In this document: piece after piece, positions 9,886 through 36,603 of the stretch | Layout of the letters: every line of letters starts with the position of its first letter | Numbering within the stretch: the first letter of the stretch is position 1 | Assembly: GCA_049303795.1 (NCBI GenBank) | Contig: JBAQNM010000008.1 | Coordinates: forward strand, 18,288 to 82,287 | Direction: 5' to 3' | Origin: Candidatus Moraniibacteriota bacterium | GTDB lineage: Bacteria > Patescibacteriota > Minisyncoccia > Moranbacterales > UBA2206 | Length of the DNA stretch: 64,000 bases | Notes under the pieces: generated by a model | What the model saw: the letters and a program-made list of their open reading frames with translations, nothing else | Told to the model about the DNA's origin: nothing | The model's database searches: none | Translations under genes and position numbers: made by a program

Positions 9886-10281
9886 TTATTTTTTCATTCT
9901 TTTTTCAGATAGACCAAGCTTCTCAATAATTTTGGTCGCTGCCCGACCAGAATCGCCGATAATATCGGTCATTCGCGGATCGGTAGCAATCAATTTTTCA
10001 AGAGCGGTTTCGTCCTCAACGAAAAAGATTGAATCATGGAACGTGGTAAATCCGTTACCGAAATAAACTTTGTTTCCTTCCACGCGATTAACCTTCTTCT
10101 TCACAAACCCATACACTTTCCCTCTTGGATGAAGTGGGTCCTCATTAATCCAGATGGCATTTCCAGGTTTAAGGTTTCTGATTTCATCCTCGGTGGCCGG
10201 TCGATAATAATTACAAACAGCATAATTATCGTAACCGGTCCATTGATTGTAGGTCAAAACGACAGTGCCAAAGCCTATCAT
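9886..10281 (-). CDS. Hypothetical protein
   Basis: 131-aa ORF co-directional with neighbours; phage-like small-gene context. Confidence 0.35.
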   Translation of the reverse strand: MIGFGTVVLTYNQWTGYDNYAVCNYYRPATEDEIRNLKPGNAIWINEDPLHPRGKVYGFVKKKVNRVEGNKVYFGNGFTTFHDSIFFVEDETALEKLIATDPRMTDIIGDSGRAATKIIEKLGLSEKRMKK

Positions 10282-10300
10282 GTCAGCTTCCTTTCTTTCC

Positions 10301-10855
10301 TTAGGTTAGTTTTCTTCGATCAATTTTTTCAAAAGTTTCTAAATGCTTGAGAGCGACAAACCAAGCCTTCCCCACAAATAATTCATCTTGGTACCACCAC
10401 CCTAATTCTCCTTTCTTCCTTCTGAATACATAGCCTTTTTGCTTAAGCAATTTCCCAACAGTAACTTCATTTAATTCTCTCCAGGGTATTTCATTCCCCA
10501 TTCCGACCCAGTAAGCTAAACGAATTTTCTTTTTTAATGATTCGATAAAGTTTACCAATGGCGGGCAATCTTCCTGTCCTTTTTTATGCTTCTCAGAAGA
10601 ATTGGACAAATATTTTTTGTACTCCGAGTCAAGACTAGCGAGCAAATATAGAGCTTCTTCATATGCCGCATATTCTGCTTTTTCAGCCATTTCCATTCTC
10701 TTTTCGAGGTGTATCGCTTCTTTTTTAATAAGCAATCCGTCTTCATTACATTTGCTTATTATCATATCAAGCTGAGAAACAAGCATTCTCATGAATTTAT
10801 CCATAATAAAATCGTTATGGAGCTCTAATCCCAACACATTCTTTAGCTTTTTCAT
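10301..10855 (-). CDS. Hypothetical protein
   Basis: 184-aa ORF; no recognisable motif. Confidence 0.35.
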   Translation of the reverse strand: MKKLKNVLGLELHNDFIMDKFMRMLVSQLDMIISKCNEDGLLIKKEAIHLEKRMEMAEKAEYAAYEEALYLLASLDSEYKKYLSNSSEKHKKGQEDCPPLVNFIESLKKKIRLAYWVGMGNEIPWRELNEVTVGKLLKQKGYVFRRKKGELGWWYQDELFVGKAWFVALKHLETFEKIDRRKLT

Positions 10856-22015: not shown

Positions 22016-22061
22016 TTGACAATATTTTTGCCACATGATATTATGTTCCCATAATGGGAAC
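22016..22061 (+). promoter_or_regulatory. Sigma70-type promoter (TTGACA-17-TATTAT) followed by a 17-bp palindromic operator overlapping the higB start codon
   Basis: ttgaca 22016-22021; tattat 22039-22044; gttcccataatgggaac 22045-22061 is a perfect inverted repeat containing ATG 22054. Confidence 0.6.
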
Positions 22062-22359
22062 AATTACACAGTCAATAATAATGAATATCCTCGGTAAAGA
22101 AAAATTACATGCTTTCAAGCAAAGGCACGCTGATGTCCGTTCACAGGTAGATGCCTGGGAGGCTGAAGTGGCTATAGCAAAGTGGTGTACGCCACAAGAC
22201 ATAAAACAGCGATATGCCAGCGCCAGTTTTTTGGCAGATAACATAGTAATATTTAACTTGAAAGGGGTAAGGTATAGATTAAAAACAAAGGTTAATTATC
22301 CATATGAAGCAGTACTAATAATGAACGCTGGAACACATAATGAATATACGCGTTGGTAA
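22054..22359 (+). CDS. higB: Type II toxin HigB-family (RelE/ParE superfamily) mRNA interferase
   Basis: C-terminal KGVRYRLKTKVNYPYEAVLIMNAGTHNEY resembles the HigB core (…IAFIDFRFKKIFVKHIVTHAEYDK); 7-nt overlap with the downstream HTH gene. Confidence 0.65.
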   Translation: MGTITQSIIMNILGKEKLHAFKQRHADVRSQVDAWEAEVAIAKWCTPQDIKQRYASASFLADNIVIFNLKGVRYRLKTKVNYPYEAVLIMNAGTHNEYTRW

Positions 22360-23582
22360 TAACAAGCAAAACTATGACAACTAAAATTAAGGTTATCAAA
22401 ACTGAAGAGGATTACCAAGGGGCTCTCAAGATGGTTGAAGAGCTAATGGACAAAAATCCCGACACCAATTCAGAAGACGGCGAAAAGCTGAGTCTTCTAA
22501 TAACATTGGTTAAGGATTACGAGTCTAAATCTATCCCTGAATCTTTACCTGATCCAATTGATGCGATCCTATTCAGGATGGAACAGCAGAATCTAAAACC
22601 ATCAGATTTAGTACCTTATATTGGAAGCAGAAGCAAAGTTTCTGAAATCCTTTCTCGCAAACGCCCACTAACCCTTTCAATGATAAGATCTCTTGAGGCT
22701 AACTTAGGTATTCCAGCTAAAGTCCTTCTGAAAGAATCAGATGAATTTAGAAATGCCGAGGATATTACATGGAATAGGTTTCCATTAAATGAAATGAAGA
22801 AACGTGGATATTTCAATGATTTACCAAAAATAACAGATATAAAGGTACTGATGGAGAATTTTTTTCAACCCATTGGATCTCCCATGCAGCTTGCTGGAAT
22901 GCTTCGTAAAACAAATTACAGATCAACTAGGCCAATGGATAAGCATGCGCTGATTGCTTGGTCCGCAATGATTGTAAAAAAAGCCAACGAAATAAAATCA
23001 GTTAAAAAATTTCAAAAAGACACTGTCAACTTGGACTTTATGCAAAAGCTGGCGAAACTAAGTGCTGAGGAAAATGGTCCTCTTCTTTCTCGCGATTTTC
23101 TTGAGAAACATGGAATCATACTAATAATTGAGCCACATTTTCCACAAACTTATCTTGATGGTGCAGCATTAATGCTTCATGGAAAAAATCCCATTATAGG
23201 GTTAACTCTTAGATATGATCGCATTGATAATTTCTGGTTTAATTTAATGCATGAATTGGCACATATAGCGCTACATTACGATGATAATTCAAACTTTTTT
23301 TATGACGATTTAGAAAATTCAGATCTATCAAATACAAAAGAGAATGATGCAGACAAATTAGCATGCGAAGCCCTTGTTCCTGAAAACAAATGGATCAATA
23401 GTTCTGCAAGACTAATCTCCATGCCTATAGCCGCTGAAAGTTTAGCAAAAGAATTGGGAATACACATAGCCATTGTGGCTGGGAAAATGAGACGCGGGGG
23501 TGATAAATATATTTATTTAAATAACATAATCAATCAGGCTAAAATCAGGACATATTTCCCTGAAATATCCTGGAAAAAATAA
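22353..23582 (+). CDS. HigA-like XRE HTH antitoxin domain fused to ImmA/IrrE-family (DUF955) zinc metallopeptidase domain
   Basis: HTH region SDLVPYIGSRSKVSEILSRKRPLTLSMIRSLEANLGIPAKVLL; C-terminal HEXXH NLMHELAHIALHY. Confidence 0.65.
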   Translation: MVITSKTMTTKIKVIKTEEDYQGALKMVEELMDKNPDTNSEDGEKLSLLITLVKDYESKSIPESLPDPIDAILFRMEQQNLKPSDLVPYIGSRSKVSEILSRKRPLTLSMIRSLEANLGIPAKVLLKESDEFRNAEDITWNRFPLNEMKKRGYFNDLPKITDIKVLMENFFQPIGSPMQLAGMLRKTNYRSTRPMDKHALIAWSAMIVKKANEIKSVKKFQKDTVNLDFMQKLAKLSAEENGPLLSRDFLEKHGIILIIEPHFPQTYLDGAALMLHGKNPIIGLTLRYDRIDNFWFNLMHELAHIALHYDDNSNFFYDDLENSDLSNTKENDADKLACEALVPENKWINSSARLISMPIAAESLAKELGIHIAIVAGKMRRGGDKYIYLNNIINQAKIRTYFPEISWKK

Positions 23583-23583
23583 T

Positions 23584-24681
23584 ATGTCTGATTCAAAAAT
23601 TTACACACCCATATTAAGATGGAAGGCTGCTGAGAAAGAAGCTCTCCAAGAGCTAAAGGATGAAAATAAAAACTTCATTATTCCGCTATTGGAACTGCTG
23701 ATGCCTCAACCAAAAAAAGCGAAAAAGGGAGAAGCTCCAAAAGTGCAGAGTCCAGCTGAACTACTCATGGAATCAGTAGAAATTTTTGAGTCAACATCGA
23801 ATGAAATAGCACAAGATATCAAAAAACATTGGGGAAATAAACATTTCTTTTTAGATTTCAAATTATTGCATGCACCAATTATATTAGAGGGATTAAAAAA
23901 TGTACTAACTACGGGCGATAGCGCAGGCATCTCAACAATACCGGTAATGCATTTGAGTTACGATGCTGATATTAAAAATGGCATCATTTCACTAGTAAAA
24001 AAGCATAACGCTGAATTATGCTTGAGATTGTCACGATCTGATATAAGCGAAGATTCCATTGCAACTAAAATCAACGAGTTTCTGAAAAGCTATGATTTGA
24101 AAGAAGAAATCATACATTTAATAGTTGATCTAAAAATCACGGACGAAGATTATTCTACGCTTACTGGCAAGATTAACAGCATTCCTAATATAAATAAGTG
24201 GAAAACATTTGCTATAGCGAGTGGCGCTTTCCCTCCGGACTTAACACAATTCACTACGCCCGATTTATACCGAATACCTCGTACAGACTGGACAAACTGG
24301 GTAAATTTAATAAAAAATCTTACAAGGAAACCCTCCTTCGCAGATTATACAATTCAGCACCCTATTTATAAAGAACCGACTGGCAATGTAAACCCGAGTG
24401 CGAGCATAAGATACACAACCCATTCCGAGTGGATGATTATGCGAGGCAGAGGCTTGCGTTCACCAAAAAGTGGTGGATTTGCTCAGTATCCACCACAAGC
24501 GAAACTACTATCAGACCAGCCAGAATTTGCTGGTGCAGGTTTTTGTTTTGGCGATGATTATATCGAAGAAAAAGGTAAAGATATACATACGAAGAAAACT
24601 GGAACTCCAAGAACCTGGTTGCGAGCCGGAATTAATCGACACTTGGCATGCACTGTAGCTCAGATCGCCAGTTTAACCTAG
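23584..24681 (+). CDS. Uncharacterised protein, possibly Beta-protein (sce7725-like) family; third gene of the higB operon
   Basis: Starts 2 nt after the preceding stop; N-terminal YTPILRWKAAEKEALQEL resembles the Beta_protein family opening. Not verifiable without an HMM search. Confidence 0.4.
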   Translation: MSDSKIYTPILRWKAAEKEALQELKDENKNFIIPLLELLMPQPKKAKKGEAPKVQSPAELLMESVEIFESTSNEIAQDIKKHWGNKHFFLDFKLLHAPIILEGLKNVLTTGDSAGISTIPVMHLSYDADIKNGIISLVKKHNAELCLRLSRSDISEDSIATKINEFLKSYDLKEEIIHLIVDLKITDEDYSTLTGKINSIPNINKWKTFAIASGAFPPDLTQFTTPDLYRIPRTDWTNWVNLIKNLTRKPSFADYTIQHPIYKEPTGNVNPSASIRYTTHSEWMIMRGRGLRSPKSGGFAQYPPQAKLLSDQPEFAGAGFCFGDDYIEEKGKDIHTKKTGTPRTWLRAGINRHLACTVAQIASLT

Positions 24682-25303
24682 AGCGCAATTGCTCCCTGAC
24701 TATCTCTTTCAAGGTTTTTTTATCCAAAACTTCAGCTAGCCTCTCATATATAGCTTTTCTATTTTTTGAACGCATGCCTTTGTCCTGTCCAATTTTTTCT
24801 AAAATCCCCAGCGCCTCTTCTCTCCATAACAGTGCTGCGACAGCCGCGCTGTTTTGATTTTTATTTTGTTCAGCCTCTCTTATCTTGCAAAAAGAAACTG
24901 CGTTATTTGAATCTACAATTTTTGCAATTGTTATGCCCCACCAATCAGGAACTATTTTTATTGCTTCGTGCAAATGATTTTTACCCACCACTAATGTCAC
25001 TCTGTCGAGAACTGTATTGTATACTTCAATTTGACCAGGTAATCTCTTGAGGGTATCTTTGTCACTTTTTAATTCATAGCCATGAATAACACCGTTAACA
25101 ACGGCAATATCAATACGAGCCTCGCCATGAGTAAGTCCCAGTTCTTCAATTATCTTCGTATTTTTAAGACTTCCATAAGACTCTTCCAGTTTTTCTTTGA
25201 GCGCAGTTCGAATCATCCTATCATTCGTAAGAATAAAATGTTGACTATGTATTTTAGGCAACTGTTTTTTCATATTTTGTTTTTGTATTATTTCTTTTTT
25301 CAT
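24632..25303 (-). CDS. sce7726-like protein with PD-(D/E)xK nuclease-type motif
   Basis: GEARIDIAVVNGVIHGYELKSDKD carries D...E-x-K spacing typical of PD-(D/E)xK; 3' end overlaps the convergent gene by 50 nt. Confidence 0.4.
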   Translation of the reverse strand: MKKEIIQKQNMKKQLPKIHSQHFILTNDRMIRTALKEKLEESYGSLKNTKIIEELGLTHGEARIDIAVVNGVIHGYELKSDKDTLKRLPGQIEVYNTVLDRVTLVVGKNHLHEAIKIVPDWWGITIAKIVDSNNAVSFCKIREAEQNKNQNSAAVAALLWREEALGILEKIGQDKGMRSKNRKAIYERLAEVLDKKTLKEIVREQLRSRLNWRSELQCMPSVD

Positions 25304-25354
25304 TATAACAAATAAAATAAAAAAATGACACTAAAAATATCCTTGCTAATTGGT

Positions 25355-26275
25355 TTATTTTGTAATGAAATCCAATGCCCCTTTTTCAATCATATCGAGT
25401 GTAAGAAGATAATCATTATGATTAAAGGTTTCTCTCAATGGACGCTGTGTAGTTTTCCAACCATTGCCGTCAGTAATCCAAATAAATTTATACTTTCCAT
25501 CCAATACATCAAAGAGGTTCCTATATTCGCCAGCCGTAGATTTCAGCTTTGAACCACCGCCTCCATAAAAATTAGTCTCAAAAATAAATAGCTCTTTACC
25601 ATTTTTAACAACAAAATCATATCTCCGGGAGGACTTATCAACTGGCACATCAAAGCCCCATTGAGCTTTAATTTTTCCAGCAGTCGCTTCTTTGAGATAT
25701 TCAAAGCCATTTCTCTTACATAAATCACTGATGAAGAATTCGACTATATCTTCCATGTAATGCCCGCTCCTATTTTTTCGTCCATTACTATCAAGTCCAG
25801 CCTCAACGCCAATCATATAGTCGACAAGATTTTTTATTTTCTGAGATATAATCAAATCCTTCAATCCTGATTCCTTAACAAATTTAAGATATTTTTCCAC
25901 ATCTTCATCGGTCGGATTTTCCTTACTAAAATCATACTCCTCATAAACAAATTTTTTGTGCTTGTAATCAACAAGAATTTTGAAACTTGCACTATTGCCT
26001 CCATCCCTGACCACTAAGGCAGGAATGGCTTTTATGGCTTCGGGGTTTTGTTTGACTAGGAATCTAAACTCCTCATCAAAGTTTTCCTTGCCAACTAAAT
26101 AATTCAGGTTATTCAAAGCAAGCTCAATTTTCTTGGTATTTTCAAACACCTTGTCCCAATTCACAAAATATGACCACAGCAGAATACTTGGCTTAATGTT
26201 TTTAATAAGGCAATCAAACACTTCGTCATTACTATTGCAATTTAATGTGTTCCTGTAAAAATCTAGGTTTTTCAT
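25355..26275 (-). CDS. Type II restriction endonuclease, DpnII/MboI family (GATC specificity inferred)
   Basis: N-terminal LWSYFVNWDKVFENTKKIELALNNLNYLVG resembles the DpnII family start (…DFPKVY…ALN.MN.LIG); last gene of the methyltransferase operon. Confidence 0.55.
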   Translation of the reverse strand: MKNLDFYRNTLNCNSNDEVFDCLIKNIKPSILLWSYFVNWDKVFENTKKIELALNNLNYLVGKENFDEEFRFLVKQNPEAIKAIPALVVRDGGNSASFKILVDYKHKKFVYEEYDFSKENPTDEDVEKYLKFVKESGLKDLIISQKIKNLVDYMIGVEAGLDSNGRKNRSGHYMEDIVEFFISDLCKRNGFEYLKEATAGKIKAQWGFDVPVDKSSRRYDFVVKNGKELFIFETNFYGGGGSKLKSTAGEYRNLFDVLDGKYKFIWITDGNGWKTTQRPLRETFNHNDYLLTLDMIEKGALDFITK

Positions 26276-27090
26276 TGTATTGTTTTTAGTTGATTAAACC
26301 TTTTTATTGATAAGTCTAAATACTTTTTTTCCAAGTCTATTCCGATAAACTTCCTCCCGTGTTTCACTGCTGCAATCCCTGTCGTCGAGCTTCCCGCAAA
26401 CGGATCTAACACGACATCGTTCTTGTTTGTACTTGCCAGAACAACCCTATTGAGCAAATCCAACGGCTTCTGTGTTGGATGCTTTCCGAAAAACTTCTCT
26501 TCTTTCTTAGGGGTATTGATTGACCAAACAGATCTCATTTGCAAACCACTCTTTTTCATTTGGTCTTCAGGCCACTCACCATTTTTCATTAAATCATAAT
26601 TGAAGATATGACCAGCTTTTTGGTCTTTTCGCGCCCAAAGCAGTGTTTCATGACTTGCAGTAAAAAAGCGACAGCTCAAGTTTGGTGATGCATTTGGCTT
26701 AAACCAAGAAATATCATTAAGGATTCTGAAGCCATGCTTTTGAAGCGCAAATCCGCATTGATAGATTGAATGGTATGTTCCGCTAATCCAAATAGTTCCA
26801 TGAGGCTTCAACACTCTCCTGCAGGCCTCAATCCAAGACAAGTGGAAATTAAAATCATCCTCAACTCCTTTACTCAAATCCCAGTCTCCCTTTTTAACAC
26901 TAACCATTTTTCCATTCTGACATGTAAATGTTCCACTTGAAAGGAAATACGGCGGATCCGCAAAAATCATATCGATTGAACCTTCCGGCAATTGACTCAG
27001 CAACTTCAAGGCATCGATATTATAAAGAACAAAATTATCTGCCTTAAAAAATGGCTTTTCTTTTACTGATGATAATATCTTGTTAGCCAT
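26272..27090 (-). CDS. DNA methyltransferase (N6-adenine/N4-cytosine type; DpnA-like second methylase)
   Basis: DPPY motif IFADPPYFLSSG; SAM-binding motif I-like FAGSSTTG near C-terminus (beta-class order). Confidence 0.75.
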   Translation of the reverse strand: MANKILSSVKEKPFFKADNFVLYNIDALKLLSQLPEGSIDMIFADPPYFLSSGTFTCQNGKMVSVKKGDWDLSKGVEDDFNFHLSWIEACRRVLKPHGTIWISGTYHSIYQCGFALQKHGFRILNDISWFKPNASPNLSCRFFTASHETLLWARKDQKAGHIFNYDLMKNGEWPEDQMKKSGLQMRSVWSINTPKKEEKFFGKHPTQKPLDLLNRVVLASTNKNDVVLDPFAGSSTTGIAAVKHGRKFIGIDLEKKYLDLSIKRFNQLKTIQ

Positions 27091-27104
27091 TTTTATAATT
27101 TATC

Positions 27105-27956
27105 CTAGTAATTCAAAATCAAAAGCTCTTTAATTTTTCCTCTTCCGCTAGCTTTGCAGTTAATCGCCCTATTTGCCATGACAGTCTCACGACGGTATTT
27201 TTTATATATTTCATTGATGAATGGCGTGTGCGAATTACTCAACATCACATAGCAGCCTCTTTTATCAAGTTCATCAAAAACATTCCTGAGTTTCAGCTGA
27301 TCTTCTTTTGTAAAACTATCCTTGTGATAACTGGTAAATTTAGCTGTTTCAGTTAATGGATGATATGGCGGATCGAAGTAAACAAAATCTCCTTTCTTTG
27401 CTTCTGCAACAGCTTTTTCAAATGAAACAGATGTTAACTTTGTATGTTTTAAAACTTTTGAAACTAACAAGATATTTTCTCTATCAAGAATGGTTGGATT
27501 TTTTGCCTTTCCAAATGGAGTATTAAAACCACCTTTTGAATTTTCCCTATACATCCCATTGAAGCAAGTCTTATTTAGAAAAATAAGATAAGCACTCTTT
27601 TTTAGTTCAGTATTCGATGTATTGTTAAATTTATCTCTTATTTTATAGAAAAGCTCCTTTTGGTTTTCTTCATTTCCATTTTTATATTCATTCTCTAACT
27701 TCTTAAGAATCTTCATTACTTCCTCAGGCTTATTTTTTATATTCTTATATGTAGAAATAAGCGTTGCATTGACGTCATTTATGTGAGCTTTTGTCGGGCT
27801 CAAATTAAAAAACAAAGCGCCACCTCCAATAAAAGGCTCAAAGTAATTATTGAAATCTTTTGGATAGTATTGTTCAAATTGAGACAATAACTGAGCTTTG
27901 CCACCAACCCACTTTAAGAAAGGTCTAGCTTGAATGTCTTTATTTCTTGGAGTCAT
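27105..27956 (-). CDS. Dam-family N6-adenine DNA methyltransferase (DpnM-like)
   Basis: LKWVGGKAQLL N-terminal SAM motif; DPPY VYFDPPYHPL. Confidence 0.8.
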   Translation of the reverse strand: MTPRNKDIQARPFLKWVGGKAQLLSQFEQYYPKDFNNYFEPFIGGGALFFNLSPTKAHINDVNATLISTYKNIKNKPEEVMKILKKLENEYKNGNEENQKELFYKIRDKFNNTSNTELKKSAYLIFLNKTCFNGMYRENSKGGFNTPFGKAKNPTILDRENILLVSKVLKHTKLTSVSFEKAVAEAKKGDFVYFDPPYHPLTETAKFTSYHKDSFTKEDQLKLRNVFDELDKRGCYVMLSNSHTPFINEIYKKYRRETVMANRAINCKASGRGKIKELLILNY

Positions 27957-27964
27957 GATTTTTA

Positions 27965-28189
27965 TTATTTAATTAGCTCCTCAAGGGGTTCCTTGAAGGC
28001 ATCGGCAATCTTTTTTATAGTACTAATTCTTGGATCCGGAGTCCGCCCACTCTCGATTTTTGCAATGGTGTGATAATCAAGCCCTGTTTCCCTAACCAAG
28101 TCACTCTTGGAAAGATGATTCTTTTTTTTGAGCCTTTTTACATTCTTTGCGATTTCAGAACATGCCTTATTTAGTGCTTCTTTTTTCAT
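27965..28189 (-). CDS. XRE-family HTH protein (putative controller of the RM operon)
   Basis: 74 aa, HTH LSKSDLVRETGLDYHTIAKIESGRT; first gene of the co-directional RM operon. Confidence 0.55.
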   Translation of the reverse strand: MKKEALNKACSEIAKNVKRLKKKNHLSKSDLVRETGLDYHTIAKIESGRTPDPRISTIKKIADAFKEPLEELIK

Positions 28190-32041: not shown

Positions 32042-32209
32042 ATGACTACATTTTCTAAAAAAGAAATAGAAGAATTAGTGAGATTGCATCGCGAGGAATT
32101 GGGATTAGATGTCTCCGAAGAAGAAGCTTGCCAATATGCTACACAGCTAGTGGAACTTTTTCGTGTTGCTTATCGGGACATTCCAGACACTAAATCACCG
32201 CCTTAAAAA
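32042..32209 (+). CDS. Small acidic protein (55 aa) upstream of the primase-like gene
   Basis: ATG 32042 to TAA 32207-32209; MTTFSKKEIEELVRLHREELGLDVSEEEACQYATQLVELFRVAYRDIPDTKSPP. Confidence 0.3.
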
Positions 32210-32210
32210 T

Positions 32211-32777
32211 ATGGAATATAAAGCACCAAAATTTACTGACCGGGAATTGCTTGAGCTTTTCCCTGAAGCCAGGAAAATAATCCCAATAAAAATCAAAGAA
32301 GTTGAGGCAGACATATGTGAAAAGAAAGCTGCTATTGAAGATCAACTAAGGAGGCTTTATTCCATGAAGACGGATAGCTTCTCTGAGTGGTTCGGGGAGG
32401 AACTAATAAGAAAACTCGTTATGCCGGAACTCACCGCTATGGAGAAAAATCTTTTCCGACTGAAGCGCTTCCAGCAGCTGATGCATCCCAAATCAAAAAA
32501 ATCCAATTGGTTCAAGTTTGAAGAAAAGATCGAGGTTGCTAGGAATTATTCGATTGAAGCAGTGGCCCGGGACAAGCTGGAGCTTAAGCAAGCAGGCAAA
32601 AATCTTATTTCACTCTGTCCATTCCATGATGAAAAGACTCCTAGCTTCTATATCTACCCCGAAACAAACTCATTTCATTGTTTTGGGTGCCAGGAACACG
32701 GAGATGTAATTAAATTAACTATGGCTCTCTATTGTCTGGAGTTCAAAGAGGCAGTTGAGTTGCTACAAAACAAATGA
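32211..32777 (+). CDS. DNA primase-type zinc-finger (CHC2) protein
   Basis: CPFHDEKTPSFYIYPETNSFHCFGCQEHGDVIKL is a zf-CHC2 (DnaG-like) motif; start taken at ATG 32211, in frame with track ORF 32163. Confidence 0.5.
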   Translation: MEYKAPKFTDRELLELFPEARKIIPIKIKEVEADICEKKAAIEDQLRRLYSMKTDSFSEWFGEELIRKLVMPELTAMEKNLFRLKRFQQLMHPKSKKSNWFKFEEKIEVARNYSIEAVARDKLELKQAGKNLISLCPFHDEKTPSFYIYPETNSFHCFGCQEHGDVIKLTMALYCLEFKEAVELLQNK

Positions 32778-34102
32778 GTAAAACTACACAATTAGAAGAC
32801 ATCAAAAACGATGTAAAAAACAATACTCCAGCCAAAAACGAGAGATTCGTTAAACTAACCCCAAGAACAAAAATAGGAATTGAGGAGTGGAAAAACATCC
32901 TAAGTGACAACTTTCCCGATCTGGCTTTTGCCGCTGAAGCAGGACTCAGTGTGATTGGACAGTTGCTCATAGATGACGTAAAAAATCCCTTCGCGCTCGT
33001 CTATGTTGACGTTCCATCGTCCGGAAAAACAGTAACATTAAACTTTTTCTCTACCATCAAAGAATTAGTCTTTACGGCAGATGACTTCACTCCGGCATCA
33101 TTCGTTTCACATGCGGCCAACAGAAAGAAAGAAGATTTAGAAAAAATTGATATGCTTCCACAAATACGATACAAAACGCTCTTAGTCAGAGATATGGCGC
33201 CAATTTTTGCCAAAAGAGATGAAGATGTGCAAGAAATGCTCGGGATCTTGATAAGAGTCTTAGATGGTGAAGGATATGAAAAAAGTGGTGGAGTGCATGG
33301 AAAGCGCGGTTATATTGGTGATTATTTGTTTATGCTTCTATCGGCCTCTACTCCAATAAGACCAAGGATCTGGAAAGTGATGGGAAATTTGGGATCGCGG
33401 CTATTTTTCTTCAATATCGATGGCGCAGAAAAAGATGAGCTGGCACTTGCTAACCAGTTAAAAACATCATGCAGAGATAAAGAGATTATCTGCCGTGAAG
33501 CAACAGAGGAATTCATAAAAACACTTTGGAGTAAGTATCCGCAAGGAATCATATGGGACAAGGAAAAAGATGATACGAATCTTACTCAAATCATTGCTCG
33601 CCTAGCTATGGTATTAGCAAAACTTAGAAGTCCCATAAATGTATGGGAGGAAGCAGCTGGGCAGAAAAAATATAACCACACACAAATAATAGTTGAGATG
33701 CCGGATCGATTGAACCAGCTCCTGTATAACGTTACGCGCGGACATGCACTTATTTGTGGACGAAAAAACATAACCCGAGATGATTTAGTGATGACCATAC
33801 GAGTAGCATTGGACTCAGCTTTGCCAAATCGATCCAAAATTTTTAAGCACTTGATTTATAATAATGGCCAGTTAGGCACAAACGAAGTTATGCAAATTCT
33901 TAAATGTTCTAGGCCCACCGCTCTGAAGATAATGCAGGAAATGACTCTTCTTGAATTAGTAGGTACAGATGACGACTTAGAAGACGAATCACATTTTATT
34001 GGCAAACAAGAACAAAACATAATTCTCAAGGATAAATACTCCTGGTTCATTAGCGATGAGTGTAAAAAGTTAATCAGTCACGGTGTCAGAAATGGTTCAT
34101 AA
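32774..34102 (+). CDS. Replication-associated protein with P-loop-like motif
   Basis: VDVPSSGKTVTLNFF Walker-A-like; translationally coupled to the primase zinc-finger gene (overlap ATGA). Confidence 0.4.
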   Translation: MSKTTQLEDIKNDVKNNTPAKNERFVKLTPRTKIGIEEWKNILSDNFPDLAFAAEAGLSVIGQLLIDDVKNPFALVYVDVPSSGKTVTLNFFSTIKELVFTADDFTPASFVSHAANRKKEDLEKIDMLPQIRYKTLLVRDMAPIFAKRDEDVQEMLGILIRVLDGEGYEKSGGVHGKRGYIGDYLFMLLSASTPIRPRIWKVMGNLGSRLFFFNIDGAEKDELALANQLKTSCRDKEIICREATEEFIKTLWSKYPQGIIWDKEKDDTNLTQIIARLAMVLAKLRSPINVWEEAAGQKKYNHTQIIVEMPDRLNQLLYNVTRGHALICGRKNITRDDLVMTIRVALDSALPNRSKIFKHLIYNNGQLGTNEVMQILKCSRPTALKIMQEMTLLELVGTDDDLEDESHFIGKQEQNIILKDKYSWFISDECKKLISHGVRNGS

Positions 34103-36522: not shown

Positions 36523-36530
36523 GCGCAATG

Positions 36531-36603
36531 CTCCGCGACCAGGACTCGAACCTGGAACAAATTGATTAACAGTCAATTGCTCTACCATTGAGCTATCGCG
36601 GAA
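36531..36603 (-). tRNA. tRNA-Asn (GTT)
   Basis: Reverse complement TTCCGCGATAGCTCAATGGTAGAGCAATTGACTGTTAATCAATTTGTTCCAGGTTCGAGTCCTGGTCGCGGAG folds as a cloverleaf; anticodon loop CTGTTAA. Confidence 0.85.

Follow-up and report, generated by a model that had tools for sequence, protein, structure and literature searches.

The locus described here lies in a 64,000-nucleotide (nt) stretch of DNA, referred to as the window, from a Candidatus Moraniibacteriota bacterium (assembly GCA_049303795.1, contig JBAQNM010000008.1, positions 18,288 to 82,287 of the forward strand), and comprises three co-directional genes, A, B and C, facing a fourth, D, whose 3' end overlaps that of C. Gene A (22054..22359, + strand) encodes a HigB-like (RelE-fold) toxin-like protein corresponding to component A of the defence system PD-lambda-2 (Pfam HigB_toxin, PF09907, 3e-19; PADLOC PD-Lambda-2_A, 9.5e-38); its start may really be an internal ATG (22081), as one gene caller reports 92 amino acids (aa). 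Gene B (22353..23582, + strand) encodes PD-lambda-2 component B, an Xre-type helix-turn-helix (HTH) domain fused to an ImmA/IrrE (M78) metallopeptidase, and matches PADLOC PD-Lambda-2_B over its full length (5.8e-149). Its peptidase part is also recognized by Pfam Peptidase_M78 (6e-6) and its N-terminal part by HTH regulators in PHROG; gene callers begin the gene at ATG 22374 (402 aa). The gene B stop lies 1 nt before the start codon of gene C (B ends at 23582, C begins at ATG 23584) on the same strand. Gene C (23584..24681, + strand; TAG at 24679-24681) encodes a 365-aa protein that an earlier note on this DNA had listed as unknown; it is instead the third gene of the A-B-C operon, encoding a Beta protein of the P4 beta/PD-lambda-2 C family, with a full-length match to Pfam Beta_protein (PF14350, 1.6e-54), a match to PADLOC PD-Lambda-2_C (8.2e-45) and a weak one to PADLOC 'beta' (1.2e-7). 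Gene D (24632..25303, - strand; 223 aa from ATG 25303, with the complement of TAA at 24632-24634) encodes a phage P4 cII/sce7726-family protein, which scores 182.4 bits against NCBIfam sce7726 (NF033832; cut-off 70 bits, E 7.8e-54) and also matches the PADLOC 'cll' model of P4 gop-beta-cII (3.3e-30), Pfam PF26915 Phage_P4_cII (precomputed) and P4 cII itself (tblastn, 5e-10). The two genes share a dual-coding 3'-3' overlap of 50 nt that includes both stops (24632..24681, both strands), in which Beta residues 350-365 and D residues 208-223 are encoded. This overlap, with the + strand open reading frame (ORF) ending at 24681 and the - strand ORF at 24632, had been claimed in the earlier note and was confirmed in both the ORF listing and the raw sequence, where the two stop codons and reading frames are unambiguous.

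Genes C and D form an ancient, co-inherited module, the same beta/cII pair as in P4 gop-beta-cII. A D-selected set, obtained by scanning one genome per GTDB species, contains 80 loci from at least 15 phyla, including Patescibacteria, Bacteroidota, Acidobacteriota, Nitrospirota, Planctomycetota, Myxococcota, Actinomycetota, Bacillota, Chloroflexota and several proteobacterial classes; a Beta-selected set contains 81 loci from metagenome and viral contigs. A convergent Beta gene adjoins D in all 78 D-selected loci with downstream sequence (the other two stop at a contig edge), and a convergent D gene is present in 77 of 77 Beta-selected loci with any downstream sequence. The pair is also found in phages Rac-SA53, Gordonia phages Powerball and DumpsterDude, Mycolicibacterium phage Mycofy1 and satellite P4, and on Acinetobacter and Marinibacterium plasmids. 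The NCBI Prokaryotic Genome Annotation Pipeline (PGAP) reports an overlapping 'beta family protein' and 'sce7726 family protein' on plasmids of E. coli, Agrobacterium, Sinorhizobium, Rhizobium and Rhodococcus. Searching with the Rac-SA53 pair by blastn recovered only the near-identical Rac-type pair, on 93 E. coli chromosomes, where PGAP likewise labels an overlapping pair. Pairwise identities of Beta and D correlate (r = 0.80), D being the more conserved of the two (mean identity 46% versus 36% for Beta) and reaching 60-67% identity between phyla; this correlation and cross-phylum identity fit a co-inherited, horizontally mobile unit. The convergent, overlapping layout is thus kept across at least 15 phyla, phages and plasmids, and the suggestion that the two genes are a functionally linked pair is supported by their co-inheritance and conserved layout.

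The overlap itself is nearly universal and strongly constrained. It is present in 157 of the 160 pairs in which both stops are visible, with a median and mode of 50 nt and a range of 4-167 nt, and its length equals 2 mod 3 in 151 of the 157 overlapping pairs. This corresponds to a single fixed phase, in which codon position 1 lies opposite position 1 and position 2 opposite position 3. In 55 loci that share the 50-nt register, no other part of the junction is as well conserved at the DNA level (1.29 bits per nt in the overlap, versus 0.77 and 0.70 in the flanks that encode a single protein). Within the overlap, the third codon positions of Beta hold 1.09 bits, versus 0.43 just upstream, and those of D hold 1.52 bits, versus 0.37 in the flank, such that wobble relaxation is lost in both frames. 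The peptides encoded there are conserved as well: the Beta C-terminus follows a G-I-N-H-H...Q..N-L pattern (H353 100%, N351 98%) and the D tail an R...W-R pattern (R209 and W212 both 100%). At the codon level, among 62 unique loci with a 50-nt overlap, the D stop codon, TAA in 46 of them and TGA in 16, lies antisense to the Beta Ile-Asn codons, and the Beta Ile codon is ATT or ATC in 57 of 62 and never ATA, which would destroy the D stop. Reciprocally, the T of the Beta stop lies opposite the first base of the codon for the invariant Arg209 of D, so that this codon is always AGG or AGA, never CGN. This codon interlock explains why 50 nt is the modal length. The 3' ends of C and D are truly dual-coding, with both frames under purifying selection in one fixed phase.

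Predicted structures suggest a role for each partner. An AlphaFold2 model of D built from a family alignment (predicted local distance difference test, pLDDT, 87; predicted template-modelling score, pTM, 0.80) has an alpha-beta-beta-beta-alpha-beta core, with helices at residues 28-43 and 88-98 and strands at 50-57, 62-69, 73-79 and 101-106, followed by a C-terminal helical domain and a disordered tail (209-223) that is the dual-coded part. No substitution of E54, D65, E77 or K79 occurs in the 10 diverse and 59 closer homologues compared, P4 cII among them. The best Foldseek match is 3dnx (SPO1766, of unknown function; E 1.3e-5, template-modelling score, TM-score, only 0.37-0.52), and weaker matches include the PD-(D/E)xK nucleases Hjc, Bax1, a cap-snatching endonuclease and SduA. 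The core fold and the E..D..ExK motif are thus common to D and the PD-(D/E)xK superfamily, of which 3dnx is the nearest solved structure, whereas the C-terminal helical domain and conserved disordered tail are additions in D. The invariant motif and modelled core agree with the earlier note's description of the - strand ORF as nuclease-like: gene D is predicted to adopt a PD-(D/E)xK nuclease-like fold with a catalytic-type motif and to have nuclease activity. The corresponding Beta model (pLDDT 89.6, pTM 0.90) consists of alternating beta and alpha elements, and its best Foldseek matches are triose-phosphate isomerase (TIM) barrels (TrpA, orotidine monophosphate decarboxylase, a de novo TIM and xylose-isomerase-like proteins; E 1e-6 to 1e-4, TM-scores only 0.3-0.55), so that Beta is predicted to be TIM-barrel-like. 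The full 79-sequence Beta alignment was too diverse for a pattern search, and a closer 16-sequence alignment was used. Many invariant polar Beta residues (E17, R148, D182, D219, R233 and D254) lie at or just past predicted strand ends, which suggests a ligand-binding or active site in the model. The dual-coded part of Beta is the well-ordered last helix. Sequence searches of the PDB with single proteins and profiles returned nothing significant for Beta or D.

The locus resembles two known defence systems, each in a different part. P4 gop-beta-cII (DefenseFinder 'Rst_gop_beta_cll'; Ghisotti 1990, cited in Rousset 2022) has the same beta and cII/sce7726 families in the same convergent orientation, and its two proteins appear in RefSeq as 'beta family protein' and 'sce7726 family protein'. 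This system shields E. coli from lambda and P1, with gop being toxic when beta is missing (Rousset 2022, PMC9122126); its toxicity is triggered by orf184, an accessory phage gene (bioRxiv 10.1101/2023.04.06.535777). P4 differs from the window in carrying gop upstream of beta where the window has A-B, and phmmer with P4 gop against all loci and the window found only P4 itself. P4 beta and cII are also separated by a 27-nt gap with an annotated terminator rather than overlapping by 50 nt, P4 cII is longer than window D (264 aa, with an extra C-terminal extension), and identity between window and P4 is low (18-19% for beta, 26% for cII). PD-lambda-2 (PADLOC PDLC03978-03985) has the same operon order and domains as window A-B-C (HigB-like, Xre-HTH/M78 peptidase, Beta) and is abortive-infection-like: its B component is toxic alone, A relieves this toxicity, and defence depends on C (Vassallo 2022, PMC9519451). 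However, PD-lambda-2 is defined as three genes, whereas the window has a fourth, overlapping gene D, and the window Beta belongs to a D-linked clade distinct from the D-less Betas that best match the PADLOC PD-lambda-2 C and B models.

These comparisons point to a modular architecture. Four genes, A-B-C facing D, are the rule in the clade of the window (48 D-selected loci and essentially all Beta-selected loci with upstream sequence), and in 46 D-selected loci and the majority of the Beta-selected ones a gene A homologue precedes Beta. The A-B pair can stand by itself, as it does on Acinetobacter and Paraburkholderia plasmids and most B-selected viral contigs; C-D stands by itself in about 29 genome loci, Rac-SA53 and actinophages, and gop replaces A-B in P4. 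We consider it very probable that C-D is a conserved functional module of a defence system. The fuller reading that we favour, and regard as probable rather than assured, is that the overlap marks the C-D junction of a four-gene anti-phage locus with dual-coding 3' ends, for which reciprocal coupling of the facing genes is proposed. Judging from its relatives and anatomy, the locus would be an abortive-infection-type defence system in which A-B forms a sensor/regulator-toxin front end and C-D the conserved back end. C and D would act together as proteins, D as a probable DNA-cutting effector or its partner and Beta as a ligand-binding or enzymatic regulator, in the way that P4 beta restrains gop. 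The disordered tail of D (R..WRS) and the last helix of Beta (GINHH...Q..NL) may both be functionally needed, possibly as a contact between the two proteins. We infer that the overlap locks C and D together, such that their recombinational separation would damage both genes.

The components, the P4 gene map and the NCBI names of both families were already known, and searches of the literature on sce7726, PF14350, gop-beta-cII and PD-lambda-2 turned up no description of the fourth gene or the overlap. What appears to be new is the association of a nuclease-like fourth gene with a large clade of PD-lambda-2-like operons, the link between PD-lambda-2 and gop-beta-cII through a common beta/cII core, and the dual-coding 3' overlap of the pair in one phase across many phyla. 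PD-lambda-2 is catalogued as three genes (PADLOC, DefenseFinder, Vassallo 2022), and current defence-finders leave D orphaned in a widely transferred clade. D is a catalytic candidate for systems with an unexplained killing mechanism, and the junction provides a rare, clean and long antiparallel dual-coding overlap, a test case for overlap evolution and possible regulation.

Several observations weigh against this reading, beginning with the separability of the genes. A-B-C loci without D exist (L190 and L191), Beta occurs without D on three Roseobacter-group plasmids (Roseovarius, Pseudosulfitobacter and Sulfitobacter) and in Sarcina and R. gallicum, and D homologues occur without Beta in the virulent phages Mx4, Bacillus WH1 and Lactobacillus Iacchus. 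D-less Betas score 450-520 bits on PADLOC PD-Lambda-2_C (PDLC03984), versus 151 for the window, and the B proteins of these loci score 609 bits on PADLOC PD-Lambda-2_B, versus 495. The functional E. coli PD-lambda-2 clone reached only 396 bp past the C stop, which leaves no room for a complete D and implies that D is not a general requirement for A-B-C defence. The overlap is absent from P4, L064 (14-nt gap) and L063 (1.3-kb gap), although the convergent orientation is kept in all three. D-less Betas retain the W...N/T-H-H helix core and bear longer, unrelated tails, whereas the window Beta stops right after the last helix. Small convergent ORFs past the D-less Betas were considered as degenerate D genes and rejected, as they are unrelated to D. 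Searches for the E. coli system itself returned little: a tblastn search of plasmids and phages with B and C brought up no E. coli PD-lambda-2, L190 had no match in E. coli, and an Acinetobacter A-B locus, compared with E. coli genomes by blastn, matched only lambdoid-prophage HigB with a short HTH protein. From the PADLOC scores and the cloned coordinates, the E. coli reference PD-lambda-2 (ECOR42, QOYB01000002) most probably belongs to the D-less clade. We conclude that the window carries a distinct variant, with a PD-lambda-2-like A-B front end joined to a P4-type beta/cII module.

Two further arrangements were seen around these modules. On the Roseovarius sp. THAF9 plasmid pTHAF9_c, an XRE/peptidase-Beta pair without sce7726 is followed by a convergent UvrD-helicase gene 14 nt past the Beta stop and by an AAA ATPase gene; the same layout recurs on the Pseudosulfitobacter and Sulfitobacter plasmids, and the helicase may be another facing partner or part of a neighbouring defence system. 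In the lambdoid immunity region of an E. coli strain E6 prophage, a HigB-family toxin gene precedes a gene for a 218-aa HTH protein, and Shiga toxin (Stx)-converting phage ORFs are 48% identical to window B over residues 19-128. Lambdoid HigB plus HTH appears as a short, peptidase-less form of the A-B module, situated beside a cI-like repressor.

The remaining points against the reading concern transcription. The best promoter-like site of the region precedes the A-B-C operon (22016..22044, + strand; TTGACA-17 nt-TATTAT, TG-extended, matching the sigma-70 consensus at 11 of 12 positions), and a second faces it upstream of D (25302..25331, - strand; GTGTCA-18 nt-TATAAT, TG-extended, 10 of 12), but promoter and terminator calls are consensus matches only, and the total number of promoter-like matches is not above shuffled expectation. 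The -10 box of the D site (25307-25302) covers ATG 25303, and D homologues are 206-216 aa long, so that ATG 25273 (213 aa) is the more likely start of D; gene callers report 213 or 223 aa, one of them taking the second ATG, and the choice leaves the 3' overlap unaffected. No terminator can fit between the two stops, so full-length C and D mRNAs would be complementary over at least 50 nt. A terminator-like hairpin with a U-tract lies on the Beta strand within the D coding sequence, about 150-190 nt past the Beta stop (24827..24868, + strand; dG -15.9 kcal/mol, z = -3.35 versus shuffles, followed by UUUGAUUUUUAUUUUG), and if used could extend the complementarity to about 225 nt. Its position is not conserved in the family, however, and terminators show no positional peak on the Beta strand. 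On the D strand, a hairpin and T-run 20-75 nt past the D stop was found in only 16 of 140 loci, the window having none. RNA structure within the overlap is at z about 0 on both strands, and an Rfam scan of the window found only tRNAs.

Type I toxin-antitoxin pairs with convergent, 3'-overlapping transcripts, such as txpA/RatA and bsrG/SR4 of Bacillus subtilis, are regulated by RNase III-dependent decay of one RNA triggered by the other. The window shares with them convergent units whose 3' ends would be complementary if the mRNAs are full-length. It differs in that type I systems have a non-coding RNA as antisense partner and no dual coding in the overlap, whereas both partners in the window are conserved protein-coding genes. 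By analogy, expression of the operon and of D might be reciprocally coupled through cleavage of an RNA duplex by RNase III or through polymerase collision; that such antisense coupling is itself regulatory we hold to be possible but less likely than not. A bolder proposal, which we regard as rather unlikely in its entirety, is that beta/cII is the ancestral core of both PD-lambda-2-like and gop-beta-cII systems, fitted with swappable front ends (HigB plus Xre-peptidase, gop, or none), and that selection has shaped the overlap into an mRNA-mRNA antisense switch. Transcribing the Beta operon would then keep the facing nuclease gene down, or the reverse, until infection upsets the balance. If true, this would be a protein-coding analogue of type I toxin-antitoxin control by 3' overlap.

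The principal rival holds that the overlap is a frozen accident: C and D would be linked only as proteins, and an overlap that arose once would persist because both C-termini are needed and interlocked, the RNA complementarity having no regulatory role. The fixed phase, with lengths of 14-167 nt in steps of 3, is what descent with stop-codon drift would produce, the pair is retained without overlap in P4, L064 and L063, no conserved terminator or RNA structure lies in or near the overlap, and the two protein-coding constraints fully explain the extra nucleotide conservation. Yet nearly all pairs, from at least 15 phyla, have kept the overlap through extensive horizontal transfer, even though a single earlier stop in either gene, evidently a rare event, would abolish it. 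Convergent orientation, moreover, is invariant even where the overlap has been lost, and the known 3'-overlapping convergent toxin and antitoxin RNAs show that such a layout can regulate. On this balance we hold a purely accidental overlap to be a real possibility, but still an improbable one.

The other alternatives fare considerably worse. The earlier note had related the pair to a reportedly obligate sce7725/sce7726 partnership, which would make the + strand ORF a sce7725-family member. One half of this stands, in that D is a true sce7726 member and the idea of a fixed two-gene partnership holds; the other half fails, in that the partner is Beta (PF14350) rather than sce7725. The window protein has no match to the sce7725 model (NF033831) even at E ≤ 10 and is a full-length Beta_protein, with relatives that RefSeq names 'beta family protein'. 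Only one of 79 related Beta proteins matches NF033831, and weakly (3.7e-5, far under the 60-bit cut-off); another Beta protein does so marginally, at its N terminus. These weak matches hint at a distant sce7725-Beta kinship, but membership of the sce7725 family itself is very unlikely.

We consider it more improbable still that D is simply the last gene of the adjacent restriction-modification operon, its overlap with Beta being incidental. Directly upstream of D and co-directional with it lies a complete DpnII-type operon (25355-28189, - strand), which encodes an HTH controller-like small protein (27965-28189), a Dam-family methylase (27105-27956), a second N6/N4 methylase (26272-27090) and a DpnII endonuclease (25355-26275). 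The endonuclease gene is 52-82 nt upstream of D, and a nuclease-like accessory gene would be plausible in such an operon. However, of about 165 loci only 2 have a DpnII homologue beside D, whereas Beta is beside it in all with available sequence. Genes A-B-C-D and the DpnII-type operon together form a small defence island, whose adjacency is not conserved in relatives; the defence genes of the window have no flanking integrase or GC anomaly.

Finally, the overlap is almost certainly no artefact of sequencing, of assembly, of a frameshift or of ORF calls extended too far: apart from the frameshifted Beta C-terminus of one relative (L020, below), no support for an artefact was found, both stops are unambiguous, the C-terminal peptides of both genes are conserved with codon-level selection signatures in both frames, and three public contigs with an identical Beta protein, from independent assemblies, show the same 50-nt overlap by independent gene callers, which excludes an error specific to the window. 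L020 (6511-7656; uncultured Bacteroidetes chromosome OY969815.1) encodes a Beta whose C-terminus is frameshifted relative to all relatives and bears a long unrelated tail, and its overlap of 96 nt is out of phase, indicating a pseudogene or an assembly error. Within the window, a second apparent 50-nt convergent overlap involves ORFs at 10036-10350 (+ strand) and 10301-10855 (- strand). The 104-aa + strand ORF is antisense to a - strand ORF at 9886-10281 and is probably spurious, and the equal length of 50 nt is likely a coincidence. All other credible convergent pairs of the window leave gaps of 66-865 nt; together with the recurrence of the overlap in homologous pairs, this marks the C-D overlap as more than a chance arrangement.

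The C-D pair on mobile elements also shows a disrupted form and a gap in annotation. On the Acinetobacter pittii plasmid pNDM-AP_882 (NZ_CP014478.1, about 67.2-80.1 kb), an IS30-family-flanked blaNDM-1 transposon interrupts a B-C-D locus. To one side of it lie the peptidase gene and a 66-aa N-terminal Beta fragment, and about 10 kb away a 5'-truncated Beta still overlaps an intact sce7726 gene by 62 nt; plasmids of A. nosocomialis and A. baumannii carry the same split layout. Clear sce7726/cII-family ORFs (hidden Markov model E 1e-51 to 1e-81) are unannotated in the public records of Gordonia phage DumpsterDude (L179:2471-3148), where a small opposite-strand 'gene 32' is annotated inside the D ORF instead, Mycofy1 (L004:3995-4648) and the Marinibacterium plasmid pLA6_006 (L174:4025-4624), presumably because they overlap the convergent Beta gene. 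In several public phage and plasmid records, D is thus either absent or called wrongly.

Elsewhere in the window, a CHC2 zinc-finger (DnaG-type) ORF followed by a 442-aa ORF without a Pfam match (32163-34102, + strand) may represent a split or unusual primase, and a tRNA-Asn gene lies at 36530-36602.

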